Positions 4,366 to 48,200 of a DNA stretch of 64,000 bases are shown here, piece by piece; position 1 is the stretch's first letter; the number at the start of each line of letters is the position of its first letter. The stretch is from Squalus acanthias. Lineage: Eukaryota. The translations under genes were made by a program, and so were the position numbers. The stretch is from NCBI GenBank assembly GCA_030390025.1, contig CM059432.1, forward strand, positions 25,112,001 to 25,176,000. The letters run 5' to 3'. The notes below the pieces were generated by a model. That model ran no database searches, was not told the DNA's origin, and saw only the letters and a program-made list of their open reading frames with translations.

Positions 4366-4410
4366 GTATTTTTATTCATTCCTGGGATGTGGGCACACTG
4401 GCAAGGCCAG

Positions 4411-5119
4411 ACAGTGAATGGGTGACCAAAAAGCAGGGCAATATCAGGAAGGTAGTGCAGGAGTCCCCTGTGGGCATCTCCCTCCAAAACAGGTATGCCG
4501 CTTTGGATACTGTTGGGGGAGATGGCCTACCAGGGGAAGGCACTAGCAGCCAGGTTCATGGCACCATGGCTGGCTCTGCTGCACAGCAGGGCGGGAAAAA
4601 GAGTGGTAGGGCTATAGTGATAGGGGACTCAATTGTAAGGGGAATAGACAGGAGTTTCTGTGGCCGCAAACGAGATTCCAGGATGGTATGTTGCCTCCCT
4701 GGTGCAAGGGTCAAGGATGTCTCGGAGCGGCTGCAGAACATTCTGAAGAGGGAGGGTGAACAGCCAGCTGTCGTGGTGCGCAGGTAGGTACCAACAATAT
4801 AGGTAAAAAGCGGGAAGAGGTCCTACAAGCAGAATTTAGGGAGCTAGGAGCTAAATTAAAAAGTAGGACCTCTAAGGTAGTAATCTCTGGATTGCTACCA
4901 GGGCCATGTGCTAATCAGAATAGAGAGAACAGGATAGTGAGATTGAATACGTGGCTTGAGCAGTGGTGCAGGAGGGAGGGATTCAAATTCCTGAGGCATT
5001 GGAACCAGTTCTGGGGGAAGTGGGACCTGTACAAAAGGGACGGTCTGCACTTGGGCAGGACTGGAACCGATGTCCTCGGGGTAATATTTGCTAAAGCAGT
5101 TCGGGAGGATTTAAACTAA
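4411..5119 (+). pseudogene. CR1 ORF1, SGNH/GDSL esterase domain (frameshift near 4783)
   Basis: VIGDSIVRG, CCLPGARVKD and DGLHL motifs; 4-nt gtag duplication near 4783 breaks the frame; ends LN-stop. Confidence 0.9.
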
Positions 5120-8102
5120 TATGGCAGGGGAATGGGAACCTATGTAGCGAAACAGGGGGAAGTAATATGCAGTCAGAAACAAATGTTAGAAGGGTGAGAA
5201 ACAATAGGGGAAGGCCGAGTAAACAAAGGCAAGAAACACAAAGAGCCATACTAAATCATAAGTCTAACAGGACAAAGGATGTTAATAAAACAAGCCTAAA
5301 GTCTCTGTGTCTTAATGCAAGGAGTATCCGTAATAAGGTGGATGAATTGACTGTGCAAATAGATGTTAACGGATACGATGTGATTGGGATTACAGAGACG
5401 TGGCTCCAGAACAATCAAGGCTGGGAACTGAACATCCAGGGGTATTCAACATTCAGAAAGGATAGAATAAAAGGAAAAGGGGGTGGGGTAGCATTGCTGG
5501 TTAAAGAGGAGATTAATGCAATAGCTAGGAAGGACATCAGCTTGGAGGATGTGGAATCAATATGGGTTGAGCTGCAGAACACCAAAGGGCAGAAACGTTA
5601 GTGGGAGTTGTGTACAGACCTCCAAACAGCAGTAGTGAGGTGGGGGAGGGTATGAAACAGGAAATCAGAGGTGCGTGCAAAAAAGGCACGGCAGTTATCA
5701 TGGGTGACTTTAATATGCATATAGATTGGGCTACTCAAACTGGAAGCAATACGGTGGAGGAGGATTTCCTGGAGTGTTTAAGGGATGGTTTCCTAAACCA
5801 ATATGTTGAGGAACCAACTCGAGGGGAGGCCATCCTGGACTGGGTGTTGTGTAATGAGGAAGGACTAATCAGCAATCTTGTGGTACGAGGCCCCCTGGGG
5901 AAGAGTGACCATAGTATGGTGGAGTTCTACATTAGGATGGAGAAGGAAACAGTTAAGTCAGAGACCATGGTCCAGAACTTAAATAAGGGCAACTTTGAGG
6001 GTATGAGGCGTGAATTGGTGAGGTTAAATTGGCAAGCGATATTTAAGGGGCTATCAGTGGAAGGGCAATGGCAGACATTTAGAGATCGCATGGATGAACT
6101 ACAACAATTGTACATCCCGGTCTGGCGTAAAAATAAAAAAGGGAAGGTGGCTCAACCATGGCTAACAAGGGAAATCAGGGATAGTATTAAAACCAAGGAA
6201 GTTGCATACAAATTGGCCAGAAGTAGCAGCAAACCCGGGGACTGGGAGAACTTCAAAACTCAGCAGAGGAGGACGAAGGGTTTGATTAGGGCAGGGAAAA
6301 TAAAATATGAAAGGAAGCTTGCAGAGAACATTAAAATGGACTGCAAAAGCTTCTATAAATATGTAAAAAGAAAGAGGTTAGTAAAAACAAACGTAGGTCC
6401 CCTGCAGTCGGAAACAGGGGAAGTCGTAATGGGGAACAAGGAAATGGCAGATCAATTGAACAAGTACTTTGGTTCGGTGTTTACTGTGGAGGACACACAC
6501 AACCTGCCGGAAATAAAAGGGGTCAGAGGATCTGGTAAGAGGGAGGAGCTGAGGGAAATCCTTATTAGACGGGAAAAGGTATTGGGAAAATTGATGGGAG
6601 TGAAGGCTGAAAAATCCCCGGGGCCTGATGGTCTGCATCCCAGAGTACTTAAGGAGGTGGCCTTGGAAATAGTGGATGCATTGACGATCATTTTCCAACA
6701 TTCCTTAGACTCTGGATCAGTTCCGATGGAGTGGAGGGTGGCCAATGTAACCCCTCTTTTTAAAAAAGGAGGGAGGGAGAAAGCAGGGAATTATAGACCG
6801 GTCAGCCTGACATCGGTCGTGGGTAAAATGATGGAAGCAATTATTAAAGATGTCATAACAGACCATTTGGAAAGTGGCGACATGATAGGTCCAAGTCAGC
6901 ATGGATTTGTGAAAGGGAAATCATGCTTGACAAATCTTCTGGAATTTTTTGAGGATGTTCCCAATAGGGTGGACAGGGGGGAACCAGTAGATGTGGTGTA
7001 TTTGGACTTTCAGAAGGCCTTCGACAAGGTCCCACACAAGAGATTGGTGAGCAAAGTTAAAGCACATGGGATTGGGGGTAATGTATTGACGTGGATTGAG
7101 AACTGGTTGGCACACAGGAAACAAAGAGTAGGAGTAAATGGGTACTTTTCAGAATGGCAGGCAGTGACCAGCGGGGTACCGCAGGGTTCGGTGCTGGGAC
7201 CCCATCTGTTTACATTATATATTAATGATTTGGACGAAGGGATTAAATGTAATATCTCCAAATTTGCGGATGACACTAAATTGGGAGGCAGTGTAAACAA
7301 TGAGGAGGATGCTAGGAGGCTACAGAGTGACTTGGACAGGTTGGGTGAATGGGCAAATGTATGGCAGATGAAGTACAATGTGGATAAATGTGAGGTTATC
7401 CACTTTGGTGGTAAAAATAGAGAGGCGGACTATTACCTGAATGGTGGCAGATTAGGAAAAGGGGAGGTGCAACGAGACCTGGGCGTCATGGTACATCAGT
7501 CACTGAAGGTGGGAATGCAAGTGCAGCAGGCAGTCAAGAAAGCAAACGGAATGATGGCCTTCATAGTAAGGGGATTTGAGTACAGGAGAAGGGAGGTGAT
7601 GCTGCAGTTGTACAGGGCCTTGGTGAGGCCACACCTGGAGTATTGTGCGCAGTTTTGGTCTCCTAACTTAAGGAAGGACATTCTTGCTATTGAGGGAGTG
7701 CAGCGAAGGTTCACTAGATTGATTCCTGGGATGGCCGGTCTGACATATCAAGAAAGATTGGGTCAACTGAACTTGTATCCTCTGGAGTTCAGAAGAATGA
7801 GGGGGGATCTTATAGAGACATTTAAAATCCTGACTGGTTTAGACAAATTAGATGCGGGCAGAATGTTCCCAATGTTAGGGGAAACTAGAACCAGGGGTCA
7901 CAGTCTAAGGATTAAGGGGAAGCCATTTAAGACTGAGCTGAGGAGGAACTTCTTCACCCAGAGAGTGGTGAATCTATGGAATTCTCTTCCACAGAAGGTT
8001 GTTGAGGCCAGTTTGCTAAATATATTCAAAAGGGAGTTAGATATAACACTCACAACTAGGGGGATCAAGGGGTATGGCGAGAAAGCAGGAATGGGGTACT
8101 GA
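5110..8102 (+). pseudogene. CR1 ORF2, AP endonuclease plus reverse transcriptase (one 1-nt frameshift near 5596)
   Basis: LNARS, ITETW, GDFN, SDH, YRPVSL, LDFQKAFD, QGSVLGP and FADD motifs; 833-codon open segment 5601-8102. Confidence 0.93.
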
Positions 8103-11100
8103 GGTAGCATGTTCAGCCATGAACGCATTGAATGGCGGTGCAGGCTCGAAGGACCGAATGGTCTACTCCTGTACCTATTTTCTATGTTTCTATGTTTCTA
8201 TTGTCCATCCCTAATCGCCCTTGAGAAGTTGGTGGTGAGCCGCCTTCTTGAACTGCGACAGTCCTTGTGGTGAAGGTACTCCTGTAGTGCTTTAGGGAGG
8301 CAGTTGCAGAATTTTGACCCAGCGACGATGAAGGAACGGCGATATATTTCCAAGTCAGAATGGTGTGTGACTTGGAGGGGAACTGGGAGGTGGTGGTGTT
8401 CCCATGCACCTGCTGCCCTTGTCCTTCTAGATGGTAGAGGTCCCTGGTTTGGGAGGTGCTGTCGAAGAAGCCTTGGCGAGTTGCTGCAGTGCATCTTGTA
8501 GATGGTACACACTGCAGCCACAGTGCACCGGTGGTGGAGGGAGTGAATGTTTAAGGTGGTGGATGGGGTGCCAATCAGGCAGGCTGCTTTGTCCTGGATG
8601 GTGTCGAGCTTCTTGAGTGTTGTTGAAGCTGCACTCAACCAGGCAAGTGGAGAGTATTCAATCACATGCCTGACTTATGCCTTGTAGATGGTGGAAAGGC
8701 TTTGGGGAGTTAGGAGATGAGACACTTGCTGCCGAATACCCAGTATCTGACCTGTTCTTGTAGCCACAGTATTTATGTGGCTGGTCCAGTTAACTTTCTA
8801 GTCAATGGTGACCCCCAGGATATTGATGGTGGGGGATTCATAAGAACATAAGAAATAGGAGCAGGAGTAGGCCATTTGGCCCCTCGAGCCTGCTGCGCCA
8901 TTGAGTAAGATCATGGCTGATCCTGTACCTCAACTCCACTTTCCTGCACTATCCCCATATCCCTTGATTCCCTTAATATCCAAAAATCTATTGATCTCTG
9001 TCTTGAATATACTCAACGACTGAGCCGCCACAGCCCTCTGAGGTAGAGAATTCCAAAGATTCACCACCCTCTGAGTGAAGAAATTTCTCCTCATCTCAGT
9101 CCTAAATGGCCGACCCCTTATTCTGAGTCTGTGACCCCTGGTTCTAGACTCCCCAGCCAGGGGAAACATCCTCCCTGCATCTACCCTGTCAAACCCTGTA
9201 AGAAATTTGTATGTTTCAATGAGATCGCCTCTCATTCTTCTAAACTCTGGAGAATATAGGCCCAGTCTACTCAATCTCTCCTCATAGGACAATCCCCCCA
9301 GCCCAGGAACCAGTCTGTTGATCCTTTGTTGAACTCCCTCTATGGCAAGTATATCCTTCCTTAGGTAAGGAGAGCAAAAATGTACACAATACTCCAGGTG
9401 TAGTTTCACCAGGGCCCTATATAATTGCAGTAAGACGTCTTTACTCTTATACTCAAATCCTCTTGTAATAAAGGCCAACATACCATTTGTTTTCCGAATT
9501 GCTTGCTGTACCTGCACGTTAACTTTCAGTGATTCGTGTACAAAGTCCCTCTGAACATCAACATTTCCCAATCTCTCACCATTTAAAAAATCCTCTGCTT
9601 TTCTATTTTTCCTACCAAAGTGCATAACTTCACATTTCTCCACATTATATTCCATTTGCCATGTTCTTACCCACTTACTAACATTATAAGCCTTTTCCTT
9701 TGAGCTAATATTATCTTTAACTTCTCTTGTTAGCCACGGTTGGACCACTTTTCATGTGGGATTTTTGTGCCTTAAAGGAATGTATGTTTGTTGTAAATTA
9801 TGTATTAATTCTTTAAATGCTAGCCTTTGCTTCTCTACCATCATACCTTTTAATGTAGTCTCCCAATCTACCTTAGCCAACTCGCCCCTCATACCTACAT
9901 AGTTTGCTTTGTTTAGATTTAAGACCCTAGTTTCAGATTTAACTGAATCACTTTCAAACTCAATATAAAATTCTATCATATTATGGTCACTCTTCCCTAA
10001 AGGCCCATTTACTACAAGGTTATTAATTAACCCTTTCTCGTTGCACAATAATAGATTTAAAATAGCCTGTTCCCTAGTTGGTTCCTCAACATACTGATCT
10101 AAAACTATGTTGCATACATTCCATGAATTCATCTTCCACACTATTACTGCAAATTTGGTTTGCCCAGTCTATATGTAGATTAAATCCCCCATGATTACTG
10201 CATTACCCTTATTACATGCTCCTCTAATTTCCTGATTTATACTCTGCCCTACATTACAACTATTGTTTGGGGGCCTATAAACAACTCCTACCAATGTTTT
10301 CTGCCCTTTGCTGTTTCTTAGCTCCACCCAAATTGATTGTACTTCTTGATTTTCGGAGCTAAGATCCTTTCTCTCTACTGTCTTTATCCCATCCTTTATT
10401 ATCAGGGCTACCCCTCCTCCTTTTCCATTTTGCCTATCTCTCCTAAAAGTTAAGTATCCTGGAATATTTAGTTCCCAACCTTGGCCACTTTGTACCCACG
10501 TCTCCGTAATGGCTATTAGATCAAACCTGTTAATTTCTATCTGCACTATTAATTCATCTGTTTTATTGTGAATGCTTCGTGCATTCAGATATAGTGCATT
10601 TAGCTTTGACTTATTTCTATTTTTCCCTGCTGTCACCTTAGTCACTGATGCCTTATTACCTTTGTTACTCTCTCTGTCCATTCCTGACCCACTCTGCTTA
10701 TTTTTACCCAATACTCTACTCTGCTCTAGAGCCTTGACATTTCTCTCACTGCTTTTAAATTTACTCTTTCCTGAATCCTCCCATCCCCCCATTCATTAGT
10801 TTAAAGCCCTGTCTACTGCCCTAGTTATTCAGTTCGCCAGGATACTGGTCACAGTCCGGTTTAAGTGGAGCCTGTCCCAATGGAACAGCTCCCTCTTTCC
10901 CCATTACTGGTGCCAGTGCCCCATGAACTGAAACCCCTTCCTCTCACACCACTCTTTGAGCCATGCATTTAAACCTCTAATCTGTTTGTCCCTATGCCAA
11001 TTTGCGCGTGGCTCAGGCAACAATCCAGAAATTATTACCTTTGAGGTTCTGCTTTTTAATTTGGATCCTAGATCCTCAAACTCCCTCAGCTGAACCTCAT

Positions 11101-11852: not shown

Positions 11853-13205
11853 TCAACAACAACTTGTATTTATATAGCGCCTTTAACGTTGTAAAAAATC
11901 CCAAGGCGCTGCACAGGAGTATTTTAAGACAAAAAATTTGACACCAAGCCACATAAGGAGAAACTAGTGCAGGTGACCAAAAGCTTGGTCAAAGAGGTAG
12001 GGTTTGAAGGAGCGTTTTAAAGGAGGAAAGAGAGGTAGAGAGGTTTGGGCAGGGAATTCCAGAGCTTAGGGCCAAGGCAACAGAAGGCACGGCCACCAAC
12101 GGTTGAGTGATTATAATCAGGGATGCTCGAGGGCAGAATTAGAGGAGCGCAGATATCTCAGGGGGTCGTGGGGCTGGAGGAGATTACAGAGATAGGGAGG
12201 GGCGAGGCCATGGAGGGATTTGAAAACAAGGATGAGAATTTTGAAATCGAGGCGCTGCTTAACCAGGAGCCAATGTCGGTCAGCGAGCACAGGGGTGATG
12301 GGCGAACGGGACTTGGTGCGAGTTAGGATACGGGCAGCCGAGTTTTGGATGACCTCAGGTTTACGTAGAGTAGAATGTGGGAGGCCAGTCAGGAGTGCGT
12401 TGGAATAGTCAAGTCTAGAGGTAACAAAGGCATGGATGAGGGTTTCAGCAGCGGATGAGCTGAGGCAAGGGCAGAGATGGGCGATGTTAAGGAGGTGGAA
12501 ATAGGCGGTCTTTGTTATGCTGCGGATATGTGGTCGGAAGCTCATTTCAGGGTCAAGTATGACACCAAGGTTGCGAACAGTGTGGTTCAGCCTCAGACAG
12601 ATGTTAGGGAGAGGGATGGAGTCAGTGGCTAGGGAATGGAGTTTGTGGCGGCGACCAAAAACAATGGCTTCGGTCTTCCCAATATTTAATTGGAGAAAAT
12701 TTCTGCTCCTCCAGAACTGTATGTCGGACAAGCAGTCTGACAATTTAGAGACCGTGAAGGGGTCGAGAGAAGAGGTAGTGAGGTAGAGCTGGGTGTCATC
12801 AGCGTGCATGTGGAAACTGACGCTATGTTTACGGATGATGTCGCCAAGGGGCAATATGTAGATGAGGAATAGGAGGAGGCCAAGGATAGATCCTTGGGGG
12901 ACACCAGAGGTAATGATGCGGGAGCGGGAAGAGAAGCCATTGCAGGTGATTCTCTGGCTATGATTAGATAGATAAGAATGGAACCAGGCAAGTGCAGTCC
13001 CACCCAGCTGGACCACGGCGGAGAGGTGTTGGAGAGGGATGGAGTGGTCAAACGTATCAAAGGCTGCAGACAAGTCAAGAAGGACGAGGAGGGATAGTTT
13101 ACCTTTGTCACAGTCACAAAGGAGAACATTTGTGACTTTGATGAGAGCTATTTCGGTACTGTGTCAGGGGCGGAAACCTGATTGGAGGGATTCAAACATG
13201 GAATT
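11853..13205 (-). mobile_element. L2 LINE 3' part (RT)
   Basis: ORF 12117-13073 with SAAFDT, GVPQGSILG, HADDTQLY and SRLDYSNALL; tail ggcgctatataaatacaagttgttgttg. Confidence 0.92.
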
Positions 13206-13561: not shown

Positions 13562-15630
13562 TCTGTTTAAGCACACTCTGCTGTAAACCCACTCTGTGCA
13601 TTCGGCGATGGTAATGCTGTTGAATGTCACGGGGCGGTGGTTAGATTCTCTCTTGTTGGAGATAGTCATTGCCTGGCACTTGTGTGGCGCGAATGTTACT
13701 CGCCACTTATCAGCCCAAAATGTCGTTCATGTCTTGCTGCATTCGGGCATGAACTGCTTCATTATTTGAGGGGTTGCGAATAGAACTGAACACTGTGCAT
13801 CCCCACTCTGACCTTATGATGGATGGAATGTCATTGATGAAGCATCTGAAGATGGCTGGGCCTAGGACACTGTCCTGAGGAACTCCTGCAGCGATGTCGT
13901 GGGGCTGAGATGATAGGCCTTCAACAACCACAACCATCTTCATTTGTGCTAGGTATAACTCCAGCCAGTGGAGAGTTTTCCCCCTGATTCCCATTGACTG
14001 CAATTTTACTGGGGCTCCTTGATGCCGCACTCGGTCAAATGCTGCTTTGATGTCAAGGGCAGTCACTCTCTCCTCACCTCTGCAATTCATTTCTTTTGCC
14101 AATGTTTGGACCAAGGCTGTAATGAGGCCTGGAGCTGAGTGGTCCTGACGGATCCCAAACTGAGCATCGGTGAGCAGGTTATTGGTGAGTAAGTGCTGCT
14201 TGATAGCACTGTCAATGACTCCTTCCATCACTTTGCTGATGATTGAGAGTAGACTGATGGGGCAGTAATTGGCCGGATTGGATTTGTCTTGCTTTTTGTG
14301 GACAGGACATACCTGGGCAGTTTTCCACATTGTTGGGTAGATGGCAGTGTTGTAGCTGTACTGGAACAGCTTGGCTGGAGGCGCAGCTAGTTCTGGAGCA
14401 CAAGTCTTCAGCATGACAGCTGGGATGTTGCCGGGGCCCATAGCCTTTGCTGTATCCAGTGCGCTCACGTGGAGTGAATCGAATTGGCTGAAGACTGGCT
14501 TCTGTGATGTCGGGGACCTCAGGAGCAAACCGAGATGGATCATCCACTCGGCACTTCTGACTGAAGAAAGTTGCAAATGCTTCAGTCTTGTCTTTTGCAC
14601 TCGCATGCTGGGCTCCACCATCTTTGAGGATGGGAATATTCATGGAGCCTCCTCCTCCTGTTAGTTGTTTAATTGTCCCGCACCTTTCACGACTAGATGT
14701 GGCAGGACTGCAGAGCTTTGATCTGATCCATTGGTTGTGGGATCGCTTAGCTTTGTCTAGAGCATGCTGCTTCTGCTGTTTAGCATACATGAAGTCCTGT
14801 GTTGCAGCTTCCCCAAGTTGGCACCTCATTTTTAGGTACACTTGGTGCTGCTCCTGGCATGCTCTTCCACACTCCTTATTGAACCAGTGTTGGTCCACTG
14901 GCTTGATGGAAATGGTAGAGTGAGGGATATGCCGGGCAGCTAGATCTGTTCTGAATCTATCCCATTTAGCATGTTGGTAGTGCCAAACAACTCAATGGAG
15001 GGTGTCCTCAGTATGAAGACAGGACTTCGTCTCACAGGACTGTGGTGGTCACTGCTACCAATACTGTGATGGACAATGCATCTGCAACAGGTGGATTGGC
15101 GAGGACGAGGTCAAGTAGGTTTTTCTCTCGTGTTGGTTCTCTCAGCGCCTTCTGCAGAACCAATCTGGCAGCTATGTCCTTCAGGACTCGGCCAGCTCAG
15201 TCAGTCGTGGTGCTACTGAGCCACTCTTGGTGATGGACATTGATGTCCCCTACCCAGAGCACTATCTGTGCCCTTGCTACCCTCAGTGCTTCTTCCAAGT
15301 GGTGTTCGACATGGAGGAGTACTGATTCATCAGCTGATGGAGGGCAGTAGATGGTAATCAGCAAGAGGTTTCCTTGCCCATGTTTAACCTCAAGCCATGC
15401 GACTTTATGGGGTCTGGAGTCAATGTTGAGGACTCCCAGGGCCACTCTGTCCCGACTGTATACCACTATGCCACCACCTCTGGTAGGTCTGTCCTGCCGG
15501 TGGGACAGGACATACCCAGGGATGGTGATGGAGGAGTTTGGGACATTGGCATAAAGGTATGATTCTGTGAGTATGACTATGTCAGGCTATTGCTTGACTA
15601 GTCTGTGTGACAGCTCTCCCAATTTTGGCT

Positions 15631-45200: not shown

Positions 45201-48200
45201 TGCTTCCTGTCTGCCAACCAGTTCTCTATCCAAATCAGTACCTCACCCCCAATCCCATGTGCTTTAACTTTGCACGCTAATCTCTTATGCGGGACCTTAT
45301 CGAAAGCCTTCTGAAAGTCCAAATACACCACATCCACTGGTTCTCCCTTATCTATTCTACCAGTTACATCGTCAAAAAATTCCAGTAAATTAGTCAGGCA
45401 TGATTTCCCTTTTGTAAATCCATGTTGACTTTGTCCGATCCTGTCACTGTTTTCCAAGCGCTCTGCTATTACATCTTTCATAATGGACTCTAGCATTTTG
45501 CACACTACTGATGTCAGGCTATAATTGCTCGTTTTTTCTCTAACACCTTTTTTAAATAGTGGGGTTAAATTAACTACCCTCCAATCCATGGGAACTGTTG
45601 CAGAGTCTATAGAATTTTGAAAGATGACCAGCAATGCATCTACTATTTCTTGGGTCACTTCCTTCAGCACCCTAGGATGTAGATTATCAGGCCCTGGGGA
45701 TTTATCAGCCTTCAATCTCATCAATTTCCCTAACACCATTTCCCTATAAATACTGATTTCATTCAATTCCTCCCTCTCATTAGACCCTATGTTCCCCGAC
45801 ATCTCTGGGAGTTTATTTGTGTCCTCCTTTGTGAAGACAGAACCAAAGTATGTATTTAATTCATCAGCCATTTCTTTGTTCCCCATTATAAATTCTCCTG
45901 ATTCTGACTGCAAGGGACCTATGCTTGCATCACCAATCTTTTTCTCTTCACATATCTATAGAAGCTTTTACAGTCAGTTTTTATGTTCCCTACAAGCTTA
46001 CTCTCATACTCTATTTTCCCCCTCTTAATTAATCCCTTTGTCCTCCTTTGCTGAATCCTAAACTGCTCCCAATGCTCAGGTTTGCTGCTTTTTCTGGCCA
46101 ATTTATATATCCTCTCCTTGGATCTTATGCTATCCCTAATTTCCCTTGTTAGCCACAGTTGAGTCACCTTTTTTGTTTTATTTTTATGCCAAACAGGGAT
46201 GAACAAATTCTGTAGTTCATCCATGCGATCTTTAAATGTTTGCCATTGCCTATCCACCGTCAACCCTTTAAGTAATGCTCCCCAATCCACCCTAGCCAAC
46301 TCGCGCCTCATACCATCGTAGTTTCCTTTATTTAAATTCAGGACCCTAGTCTCTGAGTCAACTACTTCACTCTCCATCTTGATGAAGAATTCTATCATAT
46401 TATGATCGCTCCTCCCCAAGGGGCCTTGCACAACAAGATTGCTAATTAATCCTTTCTCGTTACATAATACCCAGTCTAAGATGGCCTGATCTCTAGTTGG
46501 TTCCTCGACATATTGGTCCAGGAAACCATCCCGTATACACTCTAGGAATTCCTCCTTCACAGTATTGTTACTAATTTGGTTAGCCCAATCTATATGTAGA
46601 TTAAAGTCACCCATGATAACTGCTGTGCCCTTATTGCACACATCTCTAATTTCCCATTTAATGCCATCCCCAACCTCAGCATTACTGTTTGGGGGCCTGT
46701 ATACAACTCCCACTAACGTTTTCTGCCCCTTGGTATTTCTCAGCTCTACCCATACAGATTCCACATCATCAGAGCTAATATCCTTCCTTACTATTGTGTT
46801 AATCTCCTCTTTAACCAGCAATGCTACCCCACCTCCTTTTCCTTTTTGCCTGTCCTTCCTGAATATTGAATACCCCTGGATGTTGAATTCCCAGCCTTGG
46901 TCACCCTGGAGCCATGACTCCGTAATCCCAATTATATCATATCCGTTTACATCTATTTGCCCAGCTAATTCATCCACCTTATTACAAATGCTCCTCGCAT
47001 TAAGACACAAAGCCTTCAGGCTTGTTTTTTTAACACTCTTAGTCCTTTTAGAATTATTATTTACTGTATCCCTGTTTGATTTACACCCTTGATTTCTCTG
47101 CCTTCCAATTTGCTTTTCTCCTTCCTGTCTTTTGCTTCTATCCTTGCTTCCCTTTCCTCTGTCTCCCTGCACAGGTTCCCAACCCCCTGCCATTTTAGTT
47201 TAAACCCTCCCCAACAGCACTAGCAAACACTCCCCCTAGGACATTAGTCCCGGTCCTGCCCAGGTGCAAACCATCCAGAAGAAGGTGTAGCCACCACCTT
47301 GCTCCTTGAGCTGGCCTTCCCTGCCCGCCGGGTCTCGCTTAGTGCGGTGATGTCAATGTCAAAACGTCTGAGCTCCCGGGCAACGATAGCAGTGCGGCGT
47401 TCCGGTCTGTCACTGTTGGGGTTGTCCATGAGGGTCCTGACGTTCCAGGTCCCGAACTTCATTCTAAAGGGTGGAAGATGCCTGTGCGTGAATTCTTCTA
47501 ACATGGGGTGGCTATTGCACACCAGCTACCACACGGTCGCCTGAGGAAGAGAGTGTTTCAAGACCAGGACCTCATGGTCTACAGAGCAGTAGTAATACCC
47601 ACCCTCCTGTATGCCTCAAAGACATGGAACATGTACAGCAGGCACCTCAAAGCACTGGAGAGGTACCACCAACGCTGCCTCCGCAAGATCCTGCAAATCC
47701 ATTGGCAGGATAGGTGCACCAACGTCAGTGTTCTCGCTCATCCCCAGCATCGAAGCTTTGACCACACTCGATCAGCTCCGATGGACGGGTCACATCATCC
47801 GCATGCCCGATACGAGACTCCCAAAACAAGCGCTCTACTCGGAGCTCCGACATGGCAAGAGAGCCCCAGGAGGGCAGAGGAAACGCTTCAAGGACACCCT
47901 CAAAACCTCCTTGAAAAAGTGCAACATCCCCACCGACACCTGGGAATCTCTGGCCCAAGACCGCACACAGTGGAGGAGAAGCATCCGGGAAGGCACCGAA
48001 TACCTCGCGTCTCTTCGCTGGGAGCAAGCGGAAGCCAAGCGCAAGCAGCGCAAGGAGCTCACGTCAACCCAAGCACCCCACCCACCCGCCCCTTCAATCA
48101 CTGTCGGCCCTACCTGTGACAGAGACTGTAGGTCCCGCAATGGACTCATCAGTCACCTGAGAACTCATTTTTAGTGTGGAAGCAAGTCATCCTCGTTTCC

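Follow-up and report, generated by a model that had tools for sequence, protein, structure and literature searches.

Expression of the LINE ORF2 and related recoding sites

Translation of ORF2 from LINE RNAs is usually explained by reinitiation. For Dictyostelium TRE5-A and TRE3-A, non-LTR elements of the L1 clade, a figure legend states that the APE-RT ORF2s ‘require a -1 frameshift’ (PMC5911963). Among the heptamers on which mammalian ribosomes are most prone to shift, U_UUA_AAC is listed in a review (PMC5009743) that also covers the PRRSV frameshifting stimulated by nsp1beta and PCBP, where a linear motif, CCCANCUCC, lies 11 nt behind the shift site. CR1-group elements, with which the present work deals, are the dominant retrotransposons in most vertebrate species, and in sharks and rays they make up 22-34% of the genome (PMC13343379). 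The main text of that survey, so far as it was available, has no occurrence of ‘frameshift’, ‘translation’, ‘overlap’ or ‘start codon’, ORF2 expression being untreated there. No report of CR1 frameshifting was found in the excerpted literature (e.g. PMC11303007, PMC3905857, PMC5006619), to which the founding CR1 papers on chicken and turtle do not belong; frameshifting in the available text of PMC11835228 refers to retroviruses, and there is no mention of CR1 in the part of the review PMC5009743 at hand. Because those founding papers may mention an overlap, the novelty of a CR1 frameshift proposal is provisional.

The CR1 copy in the window

The window, i.e. the whole stretch of 64,000 nucleotides of Squalus acanthias DNA that was analysed, holds a CR1 copy with the following major parts.

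4400..8201, + strand: copy of the young CR1 family A, 5'-truncated and defective (99.0% identity to the intact relative L320, 3803 columns aligned)
4400..5119, + strand: what is left of ORF1, an SGNH/GDSL esterase whose frame is disrupted by two additional bases near 4779 (PF13472)
5110..8102, + strand: ORF2 frame, comprising a basic linker (68 codons), APE endonuclease and reverse transcriptase (PF03372, PF14529, PF00078)
8180..8201, + strand: tandem octamer TTCTATGT at the 3' end, about 2.75 copies, without poly(A) (read in the sequence)

Thirty loci of family A, at 96-100% identity to the window copy, are present in the 3.7 Gb genome. Relative to L320, the window copy lacks the first ~76 codons of ORF1, carries two additional bases near 4779 in ORF1 and has lost one near 5592, where the frame of ORF2, whose endonuclease begins at Asn 5314, is broken. 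Because of the 5' truncation and one indel in each ORF, this copy cannot itself use the junction signal dealt with below and, judged from its sequence, is a dead relic of a putative frameshift signal. Neither its defective state nor an in-frame ORF2 ATG at 5167 had been remarked on in the initial annotation, which proposed a frameshift linking the two ORFs.

The ORF1 esterase is recognizable by PF13472 (E 6.7e-13) and by a profile match to PDB 4C1B, the ZfL2-1 esterase (E 4.1e-42). An N-terminal zinc-finger-like Cys4 motif, CX2C-X16-CX2C, is present in ORF1 of the intact copy L005 and has gone from the window copy through the 5' truncation. By domain architecture the element appears as a canonical vertebrate CR1 with an esterase ORF1, the tree built for it being of ORF1 3' ends. 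Named ORF1 homologs (n=85) are mostly from sharks and rays.

Heptamer, stop and frames at the ORF1-ORF2 junction

The sites relevant to the junction, including those of two further families on the other strand, are as follows.

5092..5094, + strand: TAA shutting the -1 frame, five codons ahead of the heptamer (30/30 family A copies)
5110..5116, + strand: slippery heptamer T_TTA_AAC, the last ORF1 codons (sequence read, synonymous invariance, blind sample)
5117..5119, + strand: stop codon of ORF1, immediately after the heptamer (TAA or TAG in 23/23 lineages)
5121..5147, + strand: mini-ORF of 8 codons in the +1 frame from the nearest ATG, not conserved (frame reading)
10796..10805, - strand: heptamer and stop of CR1 family B, where stop and start overlap as TAATG
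47195..47204, - strand: heptamer and stop of CR1 family C, in which no Met precedes the endonuclease in ORF2

As initially annotated, ORF1 closes with GAT TTA AAC TAA, which places the heptamer TTTAAAC in the X_XXY_YYZ phase, and the -1 frame, open from 5095 to 5601, leads through FKLIWQG into the APE endonuclease domain (PF03372). The description of the ATG at 5121, as being in the +1 frame and leading to a stop after 8 codons, also proved accurate. Since the TAA at 5092-5094 shuts the -1 frame, ORF2 of family A cannot begin further upstream, and an upstream start in that frame was rejected more broadly, with closure within 1-10 codons at 27 of 32 loci.

Within the window the nine-mer TTTAAACTA is found at three sites, 0.70 occurrences being expected (3 of 100 shuffles reach 3), and all three sites are ORF1 ends, each from a different CR1 family. 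None of the variants and indels listed for eight sets of contigs, of uncertain kind, falls in the heptamer region, 5109-5118.

Conservation of the heptamer

A blind sample of 120 stretches of 10 kb, taken from the genome at round coordinates, was searched with a profile that omits the last 13 ORF1 residues. The 22 matches included 14 that reach the DGLHL region, the other 8 being dropped. Exact TTTAAAC is directly ahead of the stop at 12 of these 14 ORF1 ends and the two deviating ends differ by one base each (C in first place in one, one A missing in the other). Heptamer, stop and GGGG at +11 are found together at 13 places in the sampled 2.4 Mb (both strands).

For broader comparison, 176 junction segments were grouped in 27 clusters, which with two hand-added loci near contig ends gave 29 lineages, 23 of them being used in a codon test. 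The six left out are two non-CR1 esterases, L096 and L123/L124, which are without the heptamer motif, and four decayed copies whose frame was not anchorable: the heptamer is intact in L109, where the stop is mutated, and in L246, and reads T_TTC_AAC in L129 and C_TTA_AAC in L281. The terminal Leu codon is TTA in 23 of 23 lineages with no synonymous change on the tree, the comparison being with seven other conserved six-fold columns that have a mean of 6.1 synonymous changes and a minimum of 4. The terminal Asn codon is AAC in 21 of 21, again with no change (two lineages carry another residue), compared with a mean of 3.6 and a minimum of 1 for seven two-fold columns. At base X, ahead of the Leu codon, 22 of the 23 lineages have T and one has G, and the codon in which this base resides specifies six amino acids, with 8 amino-acid changes. 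The joint Poisson tail product is roughly 1.5e-6, a guide only because the tree rests on 240 bases, and the lineages are related to one another, many being single decayed copies. In five ORF1s TTA is 6 of 118 Leu codons, and AAC by itself is weak evidence since it is already the commonest Asn codon there (34 of 52). Free variation of the Leu and Asn codons, which the initial annotation named as telling against its proposal, is thus not what these lineages display. Judged by this comparison, the junction signal is constrained at the RNA level, beyond coding need.

Constraint of this type need not be translational in origin. TTTAAA might act as a weak poly(A) signal, accompanied by a downstream element rich in G, and a site for RNA processing or binding, or else a protein constraint on the terminal Leu-Asn, would fit with the conserved G-tract described below and with the LN end of 48 of the 54 homologous ORF1 proteins that have a normal C-terminus (31 of 85 are without a scorable end). 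However, a protein constraint cannot fix synonymous bases, and the ZfL2-1 esterase structure matches the profile only to position 306, short of LN. A processing signal is further disfavored by the count of A-runs of 10 or more behind the stop, which is 0 in the 176 junction segments, and an explanation of this sort, considered extremely unlikely, leaves the -1 phase and the ORF2s without AUG unaccounted for.

Slippage during transcription, with the altered RNA then being copied, was rejected: an insertion in the heptamer is present in 0 of 149 segments (142 distinct) from four large clusters, the heptamer being intact in 145 and substituted in 4. A splice acceptor behind the stop was also rejected, the sequence there being purine-rich with no pyrimidine tract.

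Phase and start codons of ORF2

Both the heptamer and an endonuclease motif were found in 15 of the 27 clusters, and counts of phase refer to these. At the commonest distance, ORF2 is in the -1 phase in 14 of the 15, with 12 linker lengths from 117 to 267 nt, a single decayed copy forming the exception. In family B the length of the G-run varies, so that just 13 of 26 copies are in phase. The reading frame of intact copies stays open for 968-997 codons, counted from the heptamer. Among open copies, no Met is encoded ahead of the endonuclease in 28 of 28 for family D and in 16 of 17 for family C; the first Met codon is 198 in family C, 167 in family D and 256 in L336, with the endonuclease Asn at codons 69, 48 and 55 respectively. 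Five of the 15 lineages have no AUG ahead of this Asn and ten, family A included, have one, the first in frame being at codons 4, 4, 5, 5, 17, 20, 23, 29, 33 and 53. A conserved AUG overlapping the ORF1 stop or close behind it was not found across the 15 CR1 lineages, the window family reading TAATA.

The ATG of family A deserves particular attention.

5167..5169, + strand: in-frame ORF2 ATG, codon 20, family-specific, a possible reinitiation start (A at -3)

Its retention in 29 of 30 close copies bears on a further point that the initial annotation had set against its own proposal, a conserved in-frame ORF2 ATG: this exists within family A and does not between lineages, where 5 of 15 are without one. 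Termination followed by reinitiation, in the manner of L1 or SART1, would have ribosomes restart at a nearby AUG or at any codon to yield a separate ORF2 protein, with the cassette serving to retain the ribosome. The family A ATG, 47 nt behind the stop, would suit it, as would the TAATG of 2 of the 15 lineages and the occurrence of some early AUG in 10. L1 tolerates other sense codons in place of its ORF2 AUG (PMC1965478), SART1 couples its ORFs at an overlapping stop and start (PMC5972666), and in contig L094, which lacks the heptamer, ATG ATG is present 2 nt behind the stop. Nevertheless, the position of the AUG is scattered over codons 4-53 where it is not absent altogether, and reinitiation does not predict the X_XXY_YYZ form, the invariant T or the -1 phase at 12 linker lengths. 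Reinitiation is considered unlikely to be what the junction is for, though it may operate beside frameshifting in the AUG-bearing families; family B, despite its TAATG overlap, has kept the heptamer in 29 of 30 copies. In L094, ORF1 is open for 225 codons and ends T_TTA_CGA_TAG; the ATG ATG is in the -1 frame and the endonuclease in +1. This contig may represent a true exception, a copy in decay or an error of assembly.

Absence of an AUG and constancy of phase would equally be accounted for by release and then a -1 restart, somewhat as with StopGo, in which the 80S ribosome slides on its P-site tRNA-Asn from AAC to AAA and yields a separate ORF2 protein with no initiator. The invariable presence of the stop directly behind the heptamer (23/23) is in keeping with this, and the G-tract, at +8 when counted from the stop, is inside the usual 5-9 nt range (PMC5009743). 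Set against it is the T ahead of the Leu codon in 22 of 23 lineages, a base needed only if the second tRNA re-pairs; productive elongation after release is also without support in this analysis, and such a restart is very unlikely.

The G-tract and the search for a stimulator

5127..5136, + strand: G-tract, G4-5-NN-G3, at +11 to +20, candidate stimulator (23-lineage conservation)

A G-rich tract downstream of the heptamer is present, as initially annotated, but the conserved run begins at +11 rather than at about +6. In the window GG occupies +7/+8, GGGG +11 to +14 (5127-5130) and GGG +18 to +20 (5134-5136). Across the 23 lineages, G is found at +11 and +12 in all and at +13, +14 and +18 in 21 each, with +11 and +14 being third codon positions of ORF2.

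A local stem-loop stimulator 5-9 nt behind the heptamer was rejected on fold z-scores: at 28 loci no conserved stem-loop was found (z -1.9 to +1.8, no shared fold), and the downstream fold of the window junction, z 0.27, likewise gave no stem-loop stimulator. Folding was by ViennaRNA and covered pseudoknot-free structures, and the purine-rich tract presumably offers few pseudoknot partners. A long-range partner for the G-tract was also rejected, the best sites differing in place among 16 loci. As tested, the junction does not appear to be of the structure-stimulated stem-loop class known from coronaviruses and retroviruses. With the best of five starts taken, the G4Hunter-type score of the tract is in the top 5.4% of the element at 30 of 32 loci. 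A pattern of four GGs, as for a two-tier quadruplex, is confined to 19 of the 32 and is absent from family A.

Occurrence in other vertebrates

The same cassette is present in bird-type and other host contigs of metagenomes (L091, L097, L101, L102, L108, L112), and in host contig L092 it has G in first place (G_TTA_AAC). In the supplement of PMC13343379 there are at least 44 matches to the motif, 19 of which, judged by eye from the first 400 characters per cell and for presence only, are ORF1/ORF2 junctions, 18 with a stop following. Twelve species codes are involved (AllMis, CroPor, PogVit, AquCat, LatCha, AmiCal, AldAff, CalMil, HypSab, PriPec, ScyCan and SquAca) and, going by the codes, these would be crocodilians, a lizard, a frog, coelacanth, ray-finned fishes, a chimaera, rays and sharks. 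No relatives were found among viral contigs, and seven weak GDSL-like matches in bacterial genome contigs were unused. A weak search for natural in-frame ORF1-ORF2 fusions (7995 candidates of 603-2000 residues) gave 3 matches, none with the APE/RT families.

Proposed mechanism

Programmed -1 frameshifting that generates an ORF1-ORF2 fusion is the best reading of the CR1 junction and quite probably the correct one. Observed in its favor are the way the junction is laid out, the phase of ORF2, codons that do not vary synonymously, a G-tract at a fixed place and no AUG common to the lineages; the early in-frame AUG in 10 of 15 lineages, and L094 without its heptamer, count against it. The conserved cassette is taken to consist of T_TTA_AAC, the stop, seven bases and the G-tract. 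On the final two codons of ORF1, a minority of ribosomes would move back by one base and enter ORF2, with tRNA-Leu exchanging UUA for UUU and tRNA-Asn exchanging AAC for AAA. Such tandem slippage explains together the form of the heptamer, its invariant first base, the phase and the absent AUG. The product would have the final D-L-N of ORF1 followed by L-I-W-Q-G, so that the F-K of a literal -1 translation would be absent from it. A pause presumably comes from the adjacent stop together with the G-tract at +11, the latter perhaps as a linear binding motif or through a small G-quadruplex, and not as a stem-loop.

The outcome would be an esterase-endonuclease-reverse transcriptase fusion beside abundant free ORF1 protein, which for intact family A is predicted to be of 314 + 995 = 1,309 residues. 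Fusion may set the ratio of ORF1p to ORF2p and keep the polymerase attached to the ORF1p multimers on the RNA that encodes it. The suggestion of the initial annotation that these CR1s may make a Gag-Pol-like fusion gains support as a reading from the comparisons above, the fusion itself being a prediction. A more specific proposal is tentative, being possible rather than probable: that the esterase CR1s of jawed vertebrates generally make such a fusion with the aid of the adjacent stop and an unstructured +11 G-tract that is protein-bound or forms a quadruplex. Within this proposal the protein bound at the G-tract could possibly be ORF1p itself, constituting a feedback loop. Were it correct, it would be a natural case of G-tract-stimulated frameshifting, conserved to the letter between sharks and birds, with a reverse transcriptase tied to its own RNA particle.

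Comparison with known systems

Architecturally nothing differs from the canonical vertebrate CR1 with an esterase ORF1 (type IVB, CR1 subgroup 7, PMC4120745; survey PMC13343379). Shared with it are the SGNH ORF1 with its N-terminal Cys motif, the APE and RT of ORF2 and the 3' tandem octamer, and the CR1 consensus rows seen in PMC13343379 have the same heptamer and stop as the window element. If frameshifting operates, the CR1 polymerase would be expressed the retroviral way; in several families an ORF2 annotated from its first Met would be missing a large part of the endonuclease, and elements would have to be scored as intact on a 30-base cassette.

L1 and SART1 have a bicistronic LINE RNA, as does CR1, and yield a separate ORF2p. 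In CR1, by contrast, TAATG is confined to 2 of 15 lineages, and a conserved AUG or stop-start overlap is absent. TRE5-A and TRE3-A are of another clade and another host with an unrelated ORF1, and are likened to CR1 through the -1 frameshift stated in the legend of PMC5911963. With the coronavirus IBV, the U_UUA_AAC heptamer and its phase are the same as in CR1; unlike IBV-type sites, the CR1 junction has an immediate stop and a G-tract at +11, with no stem-loop found 5-9 nt downstream. The G_TTA_AAC of L092 corresponds to the first-triplet form, of G_UUA type, that is listed for equine arteritis virus (PMC5009743).

The linear motif of PRRSV is at the same +11 spacing as the CR1 G-tract, a resemblance in spacing only: the former is C-rich, with demonstrated binding of a protein complex, whereas the latter is G-rich and a candidate. 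A G-tract stimulator, if real, would be of a kind that the 2016 review (PMC5009743) anticipated without knowing of one in nature. Seen alongside these systems, the CR1 cassette is a strongly conserved element of recoding type that appears to work like a -1 frameshift site.

Variation at the ORF1-ORF2 junction

In individual copies of family B, the second CR1 family in the window, the layout with ORF2 in the -1 frame is masked, the window copy being an example, because the run of Gs 3′ of the ORF1 stop mutates in length. This run is a length-mutation hot spot in the family (window 10775-10795, minus strand; L031-L060), and at it 13 of 26 copies have lost the phase.

In a bird- or reptile-type CR1 contig, L094, the open ORF1 ends T_TTA_CGA_TAG (L094:1416-1470). 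The G-tract is retained at +11, ATG ATG lies a short way past the ORF1 stop, and it is the +1 frame that holds the endonuclease. Possibly this one low-coverage contig represents a lineage that has abandoned the slippery site.

Related sequences and neighboring elements

In the PMC13343379 supplement, the consensus rows SquAca_CR1-18 and CR1-3 have another TTTAAACTA in their 5′ UTR, with a purine-rich stretch after it; its presence there may be due to chance.

Two ORF1 homologs have unusual settings. One, a bird gene model (P0086), has an almost complete CR1 ORF1 fused to a C-terminal region that resembles host protein and contains PF05605, reflecting either exon capture or a chimeric prediction. 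The other (P0008) carries the label Pseudomonas aeruginosa and lies on a 4 kb contig. It shares 59% identity with the window CR1 ORF1 and ends in LN; it is likely animal DNA inside a bacterial assembly.

The window also has two distantly related LINE reverse transcriptase frames:

12117-13163, minus strand, 25% identity to CR1 ORF2
13710-14991, minus strand, 32% identity to CR1 ORF2

Elsewhere (47280-47465, minus strand), a 5′-truncated copy of family C, the third CR1 family, adjoins a different element at that element's start; judged by eye, the frame of this neighbor opens like an RTE-type endonuclease.
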